This document shows positions 31,225 through 33,015 of a stretch of DNA of 64,000 nt, one piece after another. The DNA comes from Minisyncoccota bacterium. GTDB taxonomy: Bacteria > Patescibacteriota > Minisyncoccia > Minisyncoccales > RBG-13-42-11. The stretch lies in the NCBI GenBank assembly GCA_016782605.1, contig JADHYE010000002.1, forward strand, positions 48,067-112,066, given 5' to 3'. The notes beneath the pieces were generated by a model. That model saw only the letters and a program-made list of their open reading frames with translations. It was not told the origin of the DNA and ran no database searches. Position numbers and translations under genes: made by a program. Position 1 is the first letter of the stretch; each line of letters begins with the position of its first letter.

Positions 31225-33015
31225 TTATTTAAAATATTGCAATAATTTTGCTAATGGCTGGCTGTTAATGATATCGCTTTTTTCTGCCCAACCACGACGA
31301 GCCTGGGCAATGCCGAAATTCATGAATCGCATATGGTTTTTATCGTGTGAATCGGTATTAATTACCATCTTCACGCCAGCTTCTTTGGCTTTTTTAATAT
31401 TCTTTTCGTTCAAATCCAATCTTTCCGGCCAAGCATTGATTTCTAAAATCGTTTTCGTTTCCTTGGCCACCTTCAGAATTTTATCAAAGTCTATCTGATA
31501 TTCGTCTCTCTTCTTTAAAATCCTGCCTGTTGGATGGGAAATTATATCTACATTCGGATTTCTCATCGCTTTAATCATTCTTTCTGTCATTTTTGATTTT
31601 TCCATTTTAAAAGCTGAATGTATTCCGGCAATAACAAAATCCAGTTTTTCCAATGCTTTATCTTTAATATCAATCGAACCGTCAGACAATATATTAGCTT
31701 CACACCCTTGGAGAATGTGGAACCCCGCATCAGAACCTTTGGTTCGGTACGGGGCAAGTTTTTCATTTAATTTATCAATCTCTTTCCGTTGTTGTTCTAA
31801 TTCTTTTTCGTCCAATCCGTTCTCAATTCTTAAGAACTTTGTATGGTCAGCAATGCCGATATATTGATAACCCATGTCCTGAGCCGCTTTTGCCATAACT
31901 TCAATCGTATTTGTTCCACCATCCCAAGCAGAATGACAATGCAAATCACCCTTAATATCTTTATAGCCAATAATTTTTGGCAATTCCCCATTTCGAGCTG
32001 CTTCCAACTCACCCTGGTCTTCTCTCAGTTCCGGTTCAATCCAGGAAAGACCTAAAGCCTTGTAAACGCCGTTTTCATACCAGCCAGCAATCATTTTCTT
32101 TCCTTTAAAAAGCCCGTATTCGTTCAGCTTCATTCCTTTTTTAATGGCAATTCTCCTTAAAACAATATTATGCTCTTTGGAACCGGTAAAATACTGCAAG
32201 GCTGAACCGAAAGATTTTTTAGAAACCACTCTCAAATCAACGTCAAACCCCTCTCTCAGCCTTATGGAAGATTTCGTCGTTCCTTTCCCCCATATTTTTG
32301 TTATATTCGGCAGCTGAACAAAAAAATCCATTACTTTTTTTGCCCCATTAGAAGATTTTTTTCTAACGGGGTGAAGATTTTTCGCCGTTATTAAAATATC
32401 AACGTCGCCAATGGTTTCTTTCCTTCTTCTGACAGAACCAGCTTCGCTTATCTGTTCCACTTCTTTTAAGGCTTTTAGCTTGTCTAAAATTTCTTTTACT
32501 TTCGGCAGAATCTCACCAAGCAGAAATCTTCCTTTTGATCTTTTCAAAAAAGCAATTCCTTCTAAAAGATTTTTCTCTGTTTTCTCGCCGAATCCCTCCA
32601 AAGCAGCAATCTTGTGAGCCTTAGCTGCTTTTTCCAGCTCCTTAACGTTTCTTACTCCCAATTTCTGATAAAGCAACTTTGCTCTTTTTGGTCCCATTCC
32701 CTCAACAGCAATTATCTCTTCCAGATCTAAGGGCAAACGTTTCTTGAACTGCTGATAATATTGTATTTTTCCTGTTTTCAAATATTCTTCAATCTTTTCG
32801 GCGATACTTTTGCCGACTCCCGGAATTTCCTCAAGATCTTTAATTCCTCCCCGTCTGTAAATATCTTCAACATCTTCTTCCATGCTCTCCAAAGCAATGG
32901 CTGCCTTTTGATAGGCATAAGGTTTGAAAGCCACTTTATCCATTTCCAAGTAATCGGAAATTTCGTAAAAGACTTTGGCTAATTCTTGGTTATTCACCCC
33001 GTTAGAAGTTTGCAT
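31225..33015 (-). CDS. polX: DNA polymerase X family protein with C-terminal PHP domain
   Basis: HhH plus pol-beta nucleotidyltransferase (GDVDILI) plus PHP (DLHCHS, DHT). Start is ATG 33015 or GTG 32997. The GTG gives MNNQELAKVF, a typical PolX N-terminus. Confidence 0.88.
   Translation of the reverse strand: MQTSNGVNNQELAKVFYEISDYLEMDKVAFKPYAYQKAAIALESMEEDVEDIYRRGGIKDLEEIPGVGKSIAEKIEEYLKTGKIQYYQQFKKRLPLDLEEIIAVEGMGPKRAKLLYQKLGVRNVKELEKAAKAHKIAALEGFGEKTEKNLLEGIAFLKRSKGRFLLGEILPKVKEILDKLKALKEVEQISEAGSVRRRKETIGDVDILITAKNLHPVRKKSSNGAKKVMDFFVQLPNITKIWGKGTTKSSIRLREGFDVDLRVVSKKSFGSALQYFTGSKEHNIVLRRIAIKKGMKLNEYGLFKGKKMIAGWYENGVYKALGLSWIEPELREDQGELEAARNGELPKIIGYKDIKGDLHCHSAWDGGTNTIEVMAKAAQDMGYQYIGIADHTKFLRIENGLDEKELEQQRKEIDKLNEKLAPYRTKGSDAGFHILQGCEANILSDGSIDIKDKALEKLDFVIAGIHSAFKMEKSKMTERMIKAMRNPNVDIISHPTGRILKKRDEYQIDFDKILKVAKETKTILEINAWPERLDLNEKNIKKAKEAGVKMVINTDSHDKNHMRFMNFGIAQARRGWAEKSDIINSQPLAKLLQYFK
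31723..31758 (-). repeat. D-family palindromic element inserted in frame in polX
   Basis: Minus strand CTTGCCCCGTACCGAACC-AAA-GGTTCTGATGCGGGG. Encodes LAPYRTKGSDAG. Near-identical to the glyQS copy. Confidence 0.8.
32343..32371 (-). repeat. A-family mini-hairpin inside the polX coding sequence
   Basis: ccccattagaa-gattttt-ttctaacgggg encodes PVRKKSSNG, just after the GDVDILI motif where PolX proteins are usually shorter. Confidence 0.6.

Follow-up and report, generated by a model that had tools for sequence, protein, structure and literature searches.

Rickettsia palindromic elements (RPEs) are palindromic repeats that lie in frame in unrelated housekeeping genes, where they encode fold-compatible peptides, and no transposase is known for them (Ogata et al. 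2000, 2002; PMC10969869); they measure ~100-150 bp, are confined to Rickettsia and carry a CGTC tag at the end (PMC3733652). Repetitive extragenic palindromic (REP) hairpins of 20-40 nt, tagged by GTAG or CGTC, forming dimers (bacterial interspersed mosaic elements, BIMEs, or REPINs) and moved by REP-associated tyrosine transposases (RAYTs), often stand as inverted pairs between co-directional genes; their ends can supply codons to neighbouring open reading frames (ORFs), and some occur within genes, in frame, with replication/repair and tRNA synthetase genes as notable cases (PMC3733652). Bacterial MITEs (transposable elements of the miniature inverted-repeat type), such as Correia/NEMIS, RUP, ERIC and Nezha, have terminal inverted repeats, target-site duplications (TSDs), presence/absence polymorphism and hairpin transcripts, and lie near or inside genes; those described measure ~70-300 bp, their repeats 15-30 bp; each is restricted to a lineage, and a parent insertion sequence (IS) can usually be recognised (PMC10969869). 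Here we analyse polX in a 64,000-nt stretch from the genome of an uncultivated groundwater bacterium of the Minisyncoccota (hereafter the window; contig JADHYE010000002.1, positions 48,067 to 112,066). We propose, with a probability of roughly 80%, that three features of this gene are copies of non-autonomous, hairpin-forming miniature inverted-repeat elements belonging to two families with CCCC...GGGG ends, here called A-type and D-type.

The elements resemble RPEs in being repeated palindromes that lie in frame in functional genes and for which no associated transposase was found. Unlike RPEs, the intragenic copies are only 29-36 nt long, the A-type duplicates a 4-nt Y-N-N-R target, and the termini are identical across phyla; no CGTC end is visible, and size, host and tag description set the elements apart from RPE families. 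Unlike in REPs, no GTAG or CGTC tag stands unpaired (the strings GTTAG and GTAG fall within the stem), and the A-type has true terminal inverted repeats and target duplications. A REP/RAYT origin of the A-type was rejected on these grounds (paired CCCC/GGGG ends, no GTAG/CGTC tag, 4-nt duplication). Terminal inverted repeats, dispersed copies and presence/absence between close relatives are shared with MITEs, as is a fixed-length TSD for the A-type, although not for the D-type or the A-type mini-copy in polX; unlike described MITEs, flanked copies can be as short as 29 nt, phyla share the 11-nt ends exactly, and no parent IS turned up in the ~1.8 Mb searched. We regard in-frame palindromic repeats as a phenomenon not new in kind, since Rickettsia RPEs and tagged in-frame REPs are already known (PMC10969869, PMC3733652). 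A literature search by sequence string and key words returned nothing on the present motifs, and no precedent was found in the literature searched or in Rfam for elements this small, for a 4-nt duplication of Y-N-N-R targets, for termini that many phyla share exactly or for the stereotyped peptides.

Three hairpin elements in polX

The ORF that holds polX (31225..33015, minus strand; coordinates of all features in Table 1) encodes a bacterial PolX with HHH_8, HHH_5, palm, thumb and PHP domains (Pfam), and its product is 100% identical to an annotated protein of a Candidatus Pacebacteria metagenome-assembled genome. In a look-up, the 596-aa product was on record and the 590-aa version (P0001) was without record. 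polX with its elements is neither an assembly artefact nor an obvious pseudogene, because the allele recurs in independent assemblies (the same 2191-nt stretch in two other samples, with 0 and 1 mismatch), the frame is intact over 590 or 596 codons (GTG or ATG start), and the catalytic Asp and His columns of the ortholog alignment are invariant. For comparison we used syntenic loci reached through close orthologs (L001, ~90% DNA identity; L005, ~80%; L003 and L004, ~70%), a set of 114 PolX orthologs at no less than 71% identity, the solved structure of Thermus thermophilus PolX (3AU2), and an AlphaFold model with a mean predicted local distance difference test score (pLDDT) of 66. A reading of this DNA from its letters alone (the sequence-only reading) had proposed two in-frame palindromic insertions in polX and a third element at its start, and all three are present where it had placed them, including the D-type element in the PHP half.

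The A-type mini-hairpin (32343-32371) reads CCCCATTAGAA-GATTTTT-TTCTAACGGGG on the plus strand and CCCCGTTAGAA-AAAAATC-TTCTAATGGGG on the gene strand, where it encodes PVRKKSSNG, five residues past the GDVDILI motif. Four extra bases (TTCA, gene strand) accompany the hairpin, so the full inserted unit is 33 nt, or 11 codons, encoding LHPVRKKSSNG. L001 and L005 are exactly without these 33 nt and read AAAAATC followed directly by CAAAAAAAG at this position. Furthermore, a short form (KNPKKVMDFF-like) occurs in 91 of the 114 orthologs, and the window PolX is 11 residues longer. The sequence-only reading had noted both the peptide behind GDVDILI and the usual difference of about 11 residues, and the alignment bears it out on each. 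It had also counted identical extra residues in orthologs as evidence against insertion; such residues do occur, in ortholog P0017 (LHPVRKKSSNGA), and the insertion reading nonetheless stands, because the P0017 segment is the same hairpin element at the DNA level.

The D-type unit in the PHP-domain loop is 36 nt long: CTTG precedes an imperfect hairpin, CCCCGTACCGAACC-AAA-GGTTCTGATGCGGGG with the core CCCCGTACCGAACCAAAGGTTCTGATGCGGGG, and the unit encodes LAPYRTKGSDAG. It is also present in L005 and is absent from L001, L003 and most orthologs. The sequence around it is nearer to L005 than to L001, which suggests that this neighbourhood is a recombination patch.

Structural comparison places both segments in loops. 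The alignment of 3AU2 spans residues 8-595 and is interrupted by gaps exactly where the two in-frame inserts lie, at 213-222 and 422-430. The AlphaFold model renders both inserts as coil of low confidence, with a strand on one side and a helix on the other; specifically, the A insert lies between strand 204-211 and helix 224-232 (pLDDT <50) and the D insert between helix 403-419 and strand 433-442. These comparisons support both in-frame segments as genuine insertions of repeated palindromic elements. All three hairpins of polX have predicted folding energies far below those of shuffled controls (-15.9 kcal/mol, z -6.2, for the mini-hairpin RNA; -19.6 kcal/mol for the D-type; -48.7 kcal/mol, z -6.7, for A4, the element at the start).

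A4 fills the gap between polX and the upstream gene of the major facilitator superfamily (MFS). At this junction the window has 129 extra nt, bordered by TGAA at either end. In L001 and L005, the MFS stop codon stands 3 nt before the polX ATG, A4 is absent, and the alignment blocks overlap by 4 nt. Judged by these alignments, A4 is a clean insertion with TGAA duplication into the polX start codon. The total of 133 nt has shifted the original ATG to 33130, out of frame with polX, where it opens a small ORF of 42 codons that stops at a TAA (33004-33002) in the 3′ arm of A4, 4 nt before the GTG at 32997; this small ORF could conceivably have a function. A promoter/terminator scan of A4 revealed no promoter-like site, and the sole terminator-like site lay outside the element.

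Two in-frame codons compete as the present start of polX, and the 18-bp stem of A4 covers both. The GTG at 32997 is formed by the last G of the A4 arm and the TG of the adjacent TGAA copy, while the ATG at 33015 sits at the loop/arm boundary of A4, 18 nt upstream. All orthologs, the NCBI annotation (P0001) and the 3AU2 alignment begin at the GTG (M-[KN]-N-Q-E-L; window MNNQELAK); the gene caller of the ENA assemblies chose the ATG, which would give the N-terminal peptide MQTSNGVNNQELAK instead. Ribosome-binding sites are no guide to start codons in this organism, because a Shine-Dalgarno-like motif precedes only 4 of 43 window genes; upstream regions are A/T-rich. On the alignments, the true start is probably the GTG, and translation of QTSNG is therefore doubtful. 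The sequence-only reading was right that the 5′ end lies in A4, where it had put the ATG in the loop, and less so in having the arm translated there. Likewise, its observation that the arm is read as SNG in three places stands at the level of ORFs, but the 5′ copies in polX and in the iorB-like gene lie upstream of the likely true starts: the iorB-like ORF has a similar 5′ ambiguity for ISNGA, its Pfam POR domain beginning only at residue 34.

The same positions of polX are occupied by palindromes in other lineages. At the A site, inserts of 6-20 residues are found in 23 of the 114 orthologs, each with insert-free nearest neighbours, and two proteins that are 98.4% identical (P0045 and P0071) differ in the A-site insert. 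The insert of L003 is the same A-type hairpin, its arms perfect; that of L131 is a hairpin of another family (E-type, CCCCCACACCA...TGGTGTGGGGG, which occurs in other genomes with 4-nt duplications) that adds the same 33 nt and whose arms pair at 10 of 11 positions. In L132 a 33-nt version is found in a decayed state, and polX of L133 (892-2676) has a 60-nt GC-rich palindrome. At the D site, polX of L134 (3001-4782) carries a 57-nt GC-rich double hairpin flanked by a 13-nt direct repeat, AAATTCARAATTC; at its start codon, a different A-type long element lies in the same TGAA, again leaving a GTG start. Because different palindromic inserts occupy these positions in other lineages, the simplest reading is that all three are permissive or preferred sites, in line with the earlier suggestion of tolerance or hotspot behaviour. 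Selection may leave inserts only in permissive loops or at a gene boundary, and the positions also match an A-rich Y-N-N-R target preference. The density itself, three elements per 1.9 kb versus ~16 per 64 kb, is modestly unusual (Poisson p = 0.013, uncorrected for ~50 genes).

Spread, target duplications and reading frame of the two families

In the 64-kb window, the A-arm motif occurs 13 times, always as inverted pairs, against 2.3 expected, and none of 100 shuffles reached 13; the pairs include seven A-type copies, several of which are absent from L001 and L005. To cover other organisms, we scanned one genome per GTDB species for CCCCGTTAGAA-N(3-33)-TTCTAACGGGG, for which we estimate a chance expectation of ~1 match per 596 Gb, and obtained at least 120 loci. 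All counts given below for either family are among the matches listed. By phylum, as estimated from record names and with contigs of up to 3 Mb included, the A-type loci comprise roughly 30 Omnitrophota, roughly 30 Patescibacteria of many classes, ~20 Planctomycetota, ~15 Nitrospirota, about a dozen Desulfobacterota, a few Gammaproteobacteria, single loci in Elusimicrobia, Clostridia, Riflebacteria, Edwardsbacteria and Stahlbacteria, and one Aenigmatarchaeota contig that is possibly mis-binned. Mini-copies in viral contigs amount to only 5 stretches on 4 contigs and so give no evidence for phages as main carriers.

Perfect 4-nt target duplications flank 88 of 149 A-type copies, against 0.4% by chance. 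The target is strictly Y-N-N-R: in every case the first base is T or C and the fourth A or G, half of the targets being TAAA or TTTA and TTAA being rare. Consistent with duplication on insertion, L001 has single target copies at the A-type empty sites. A-type elements measure from ~130 nt to as little as 29 nt, the latter being two arms joined by a 7-nt loop; their arms, with the ends CCCCGTTAGAA, are 11-18 nt long and up to 100% complementary. Some are nested in or beside other A-type elements with 4-nt duplications of their own (L125 1463-1597, L025 6533-6678, L097 6124-6231), indicating repeated activity.

The commonest loops are 7 nt and 31 nt, and the 7-nt form is the 29-nt element that adds 33 nt with its duplication. 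Of 122 scanned copies, 69 have a length that, with the duplication added, is divisible by three; 17 of these fall within long ORFs, flanked by 50 or more codons in either direction, versus 0 of the 53 others (Fisher p = 3e-5). Fifteen of these 17 read PVR[NKS]...SNG[VA] and two read PLE...FLTG; the third frame has TAG and TAA. Hairpins removed before translation would show neither a length nor a frame constraint, so both biases speak for read-through. In view of the PVR..SNG bias, the SNG reading, noticed from the window alone together with the presence of A-type arms inside coding sequence, is a general property of the family. The idea that the loop is copied from the flank, which arose from the double occurrence of AAAAATC in polX, was rejected: over 70 mini-copies the mean longest match was 3.83, versus 3.90 in shuffled sequence.

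Long A-type copies share internal homology across genomes, and the interior of the copy at 15838-15969 matches the element upstream of L134 polX. The two (15838-15969 and L134 2866-3000) each contain an A/T hairpin as well as the motif ATAACGGGGTATAA and, close to the 3′ arm, a -10-like box (TATAAT/TATAAA), and stand in the same orientation relative to the downstream gene. Long A-type elements may act as a terminator/promoter cassette.

The D-type was found in at least 120 metagenome contigs, with the identical 32-mer in 71 of 121 copies; the variants differ at loop and internal-loop positions. It has no target duplication, and is flanked on the left by a conserved A-run and CYTG and on the right by TTNRA. 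Of the copies with distinct flanks, 48 of 88 lie within long ORFs. Although all six frames are stop-free, a single orientation and frame, (L/P)APYRTEGSGAG, accounts for 38 of 49 readings (p ~1e-20); the readings come partly from orthologous genes, and ~23 of 30 distinct contexts are in the preferred frame. The window holds a second D-type unit, in frame in the glycyl-tRNA synthetase (GlyRS) gene, where it encodes PAPYRTEGSGAG between two CxxC pairs (fold -26.1 kcal/mol). Comparison of GlyRS with PDB 8U2Q places this unit in a loop of similar length, and a net insertion is not demonstrable by that comparison. Elsewhere, a 5′-3′ exonuclease gene (L189 5676-6710) carries a long composite insert (…PSTRAKPSTRAELGAGQSRSELCSTSGLGAGLVPHRNEVSGAG…), apparently of several palindromic units, one of which resembles the D-type.

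Proposed mechanism and alternative explanations

We propose that the A-type integrates at a 4-nt staggered cut in a Y-N-N-R target, duplicating the target. A long copy, A4, would have landed in the TGAA that overlaps the polX ATG, parting polX from the upstream MFS gene and leaving a new GTG built from the terminal G of the element and the TG of the duplication, with the in-frame ATG 18 nt upstream as an alternative. A mini-copy would have landed in a palm-domain loop past the catalytic DxD strand, adding 33 nt (11 codons), and a copy of the D-type, a 36-nt unit that is mostly intragenic, sits in a PHP-domain loop. Intragenic copies would persist where their length is a multiple of three, their frame is stop-free and they fall in surface loops, other coding insertions being removed by selection. 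The peptides they would encode are short, hydrophilic and Gly/Pro/Ser-rich (PVRKKSSNG, APYRTKGSDAG). If the inserts of polX are read through, as we infer, the predicted junction peptides are ITAKNLHPVR, SSNGAKKVMDFFVQLPNITK and LAPYRTKGSDAGFHILQGCEANILSDGSIDIK.

The 4-nt staggered duplication and the terminal inverted repeats point to a DDE-type transposase that would be supplied in trans. The A-type shares its 4-bp target duplication and CCC-initial inverted repeats (CCCCGTTAGAAAT) with piggyBac/IS1380, and the putative ends of piggyBac (CCCTAGAAAGATA) and ISEcp1 (CCTAGATTCTACGT), strings that occur in papers on those elements, resemble it, which is a tentative lead. Unlike that of piggyBac, the A-type target is YNNR, mostly TAAA or TTTA, and not TTAA. 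A4 also recalls the mycobacterial interspersed repetitive units (MIRUs), which are intercistronic repeats with small ORFs that overlap neighbouring genes, in that it fills an intercistronic gap with a small ORF running from the old start to 4 nt before the new one; MIRUs are tandem direct repeats, not hairpins, and the arrangement is not kept in the L134 element at the same site. Integron attC sites were considered, as GTTAGAA resembles the GTTRRRY core, and rejected: the order GTTAGAA...TTCTAAC is reversed relative to R''(RYYYAAC)-L''...L'-R'(GTTRRRY) and reads identically on both strands, and A-type copies are isolated, with target duplications, outside cassette arrays.

Several observations weigh against the proposal of non-autonomous mobile hairpins. 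A search of ~1.8 Mb, which does not establish absence, gave neither a transposase nor an autonomous copy, whether in the window, in the 10 kb on either side of it or near the 120 A-type loci listed. The 823 ORFs from these loci clustered into common families only (sensor kinases, GGDEF, ABC transporters), solo A-arms were not adjacent to transposases, and long-range arm pairs in L028 and L189 enclose ordinary genes such as that of a histidine kinase. Of the 149 perfect-ended A-type copies, 40 have flanks mismatched at two or more of four positions, too many for decay to explain. The mini-copy in polX is among these and has no clean duplication: the right flank, CAAA, is host target, and the left flank, TTCA, is foreign. 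The mini-copies of the window and L003 are identical at 27 of 29 positions in genes that are only ~72% identical, and the E-type hairpin of L131, with different arms, has the same TTCA left flank and a similar loop. This hints at constraint on the hairpin or at a replacement process, neither predicted by a purely selfish model. Both the mismatched flanks and the shared TTCA could arise if a hairpin intermediate carried donor flanks along, or if one hairpin took the place of another. In addition, the D-type may move differently, as it lacks a target duplication and has a conserved left flank, and the AlphaFold model of PolX is mediocre overall.

Other explanations have been weighed against these data. 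The source is a metagenome-assembled genome, and chimeric assembly can create palindromes; an artefact, or a decaying polX pseudogene, is nevertheless hardly credible given that the two further assemblies come from other samples, that the same mini-element is also present in L003 (JGI) and L004 (ENA), and that the frame is unbroken with all invariant catalytic residues kept. Nor do we give more than minimal weight to ordinary lineage-specific loop variation on which the palindromes fall by coincidence. The A and D sites are length-variable loops within the PolX family, but a relative at 90% DNA identity shows exact empty sites, unrelated genes and phyla contain the same nucleotide units with target duplications, and the arm motif is ~six-fold over-represented in the window. 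Quite unlikely, although harder to dismiss, is that the hairpins are kept for a nucleic-acid function (mRNA processing or stability, translational pausing, terminator/promoter cassettes, or protein-binding DNA cruciforms), mobility being their origin only. The hairpins fold very stably (energies of -15.9 to -48.7 kcal/mol, with z between -3.9 and -6.7), the near-identity of the window and L003 mini-hairpins, the pairing of L131 arms that differ in sequence, and the many identical D-type copies, with variants that differ at loop and internal-loop positions, would fit such a role, and long A elements lie in one orientation between co-directional genes, with their A/T hairpin and -10-like box. 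Against this, the nearest relatives of each insert-bearing polX are without insert, the syntenic L001 and L005 sites are empty with nothing in place, recent spread equally predicts identity among copies, and neither an Rfam family nor the promoter scan of A4 gave a match.

The D-type, and possibly the flank-mismatched A-type copies, might instead be REP-like and have moved as single-stranded hairpins by an HUH transposase (RAYT or IS200-IS605-type), 3′ of CYTG. The absence of a target duplication, the conserved CYTG directly 5′ of an imperfect hairpin and the strong orientation bias would be accounted for, and in-frame REPs are known in repair and tRNA synthetase genes (PMC3733652), as the window copies in polX and GlyRS would be. 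We consider this route unlikely, if worth keeping in mind, as no RAYT or TnpA gene was found in the 64-kb window or in 20 kb of flanks, the core begins with CCCCGT like the A, B and C families, which make 4-nt duplications, and no unpaired GTAG or CGTC tag can be read in the unit.

Other elements of the window and wider meaning

Related families are present in the window, with B-type ends CCCGGTAGTGAAAATTCGAC and C-type ends CCCCGTAATACAAC... (Table 1). The B-type element at 40507..40580 is absent from L001 and L005, where alignment blocks overlap by 4 nt. At 24898-24902, 27373-27377, 40503-40507 and 15836-15838, the start of a window gene coincides exactly with an end of a B-, C- or A-type element, because the duplicated target (TATG, gene strand) held the start codon or the final G of the arm makes a GTG; the gene downstream of 15838..15969 starts at such a GTG. 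An Rfam search of the window at gathering thresholds returned the transfer-messenger RNA (tmRNA) and one tRNA only, with no match on the elements.

Table 1. Coordinates of polX, its three elements and the other repeat elements of the window
Feature	Position	Strand	Basis and remarks
polX coding sequence (PolX core and PHP domain), GTG start	31225..32997	minus	ORF, Pfam domains, orthologs
In-frame upstream ATG of polX	33015	minus	adds MQTSNG if used as start
A-type mini-element in polX	32343..32375	minus	29-nt hairpin (11-nt arms, 7-nt loop) 32343-32371 plus foreign TTCA 32372-32375
D-type unit in PHP-domain loop of polX	31723..31758	minus	CTTG plus 32-nt imperfect hairpin
A4, A-type, filling the MFS-polX gap	32997..33125 (129 nt)		inverted repeat I12; 18-nt perfect terminal inverted repeats
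A4 TSD copy 1	32993..32996		TTCA (plus strand), TGAA (gene strand); L001 has a single TGAA within ATGAAG
A4 TSD copy 2	33126..33129		carries TG of the displaced original ATG (33130-33128)
Small ORF through A4, 42 codons	33002..33130	minus	opened by the displaced original ATG
D-type unit in GlyRS gene 17246..18640	18254..18289	minus	CCTG plus hairpin 18254-18285, in frame
A-type long element between M16 peptidase gene and AI-2E transporter gene	15838..15969		fills the gap; TSD TTCA
A-type	40647..40725		ends CCCCGTTAGAG; TSD TTTA; absent from L001 and L005, 4-nt block overlap
A-type	27223..27285		ends CCCCGTTAGAT; TSD TAAA
A-type over 5′ end of iorB-like ORF 5296..5937	5871..5949		ISNGA; flanks CTTG and TTAA not identical
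A-type upstream of uvrB	46402..46469		one arm with 1-nt indel (CCCCGTTTAGAA)
B-type, abutting start of gene 39939..40505	40507..40580		ends CCCGGT(T)AGTAGAAATTCGA...; TSD CATA
C-type, abutting start codon of isoleucyl-tRNA synthetase (IleRS)	24902..25036		ends CCCYGTATATCAAC... / ...GTATTACGGGG; TSD CATA (TATG on gene strand)

Further features of the window stand apart from these families. The tmRNA gene (27817-28174) lies directly downstream of a smpB-like ORF (27375..27824), just upstream of which are A- and B-type elements (27223-27376); the single tRNA gene is at 42378-42449. ORF 37019..39595 contains a 1249-nt segment (37816-39064) that is missing in the L001 ortholog (MJ0043_C family; 424 vs 858 aa) and that Intein_splicing and LAGLIDADG matches identify as an intein with a homing-endonuclease domain. 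The same ORF has a 48-nt in-frame insertion relative to L001 and L005 at 39260-39307, with a hairpin of a different palindrome type (AAAGAGGATTTATCCTCTTT). Upstream of a greA-like gene, a 79-nt AT-rich segment (36693-36771) is absent from L001 and L005 (3-nt block overlap) and has no CCCC/GGGG ends. At 62255-62385, where a T2SSE-like ATPase gene lies on one side and an HHH/LTD protein gene on the other, 87 nt are enclosed by an inverted repeat (AAAATAGCCCCAGGGCTGGGGG / CCCCCAGCCCAAGAGCTATTTT) that may be another element family. A GATase-family gene beside a Nudix gene (29302-30699) did not align to L001 12249-13598 at the blastn threshold used, between flanking genes ~90% identical; it may be a gene replacement or a highly divergent allele.

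Beyond polX, it is possible, if short of probable, that the CCCC...GGGG hairpins form an undescribed, horizontally spreading mobile group in many phyla typical of anoxic groundwater and sediment, possibly including DPANN archaea, adapted to essential genes by translation as loop peptides (PVR..SNG, APYRTEGSGAG) and perhaps, at 29-36 nt, smaller than any described MITE. Should the elements be what they seem, mobile DNA rather than adaptive loops would make up a noticeable part of the lineage-specific insertions that proteins of uncultivated bacteria show (the candidate phyla radiation (CPR)/Patescibacteria, Omnitrophota, Planctomycetota, Nitrospirota and Desulfobacterota). Gene calling would be affected, since start codons are created or displaced at element ends, as would alignment-based phylogeny and structure prediction. 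With its target duplications, a 29-nt element would push down the lower limit on the size of transposable units, and 11-nt ends that are exact across phyla would imply recent exchange between very different cells and an enzyme of broad host range. The copies inside genes would amount to a natural experiment on which protein loops tolerate 11-12 extra residues.

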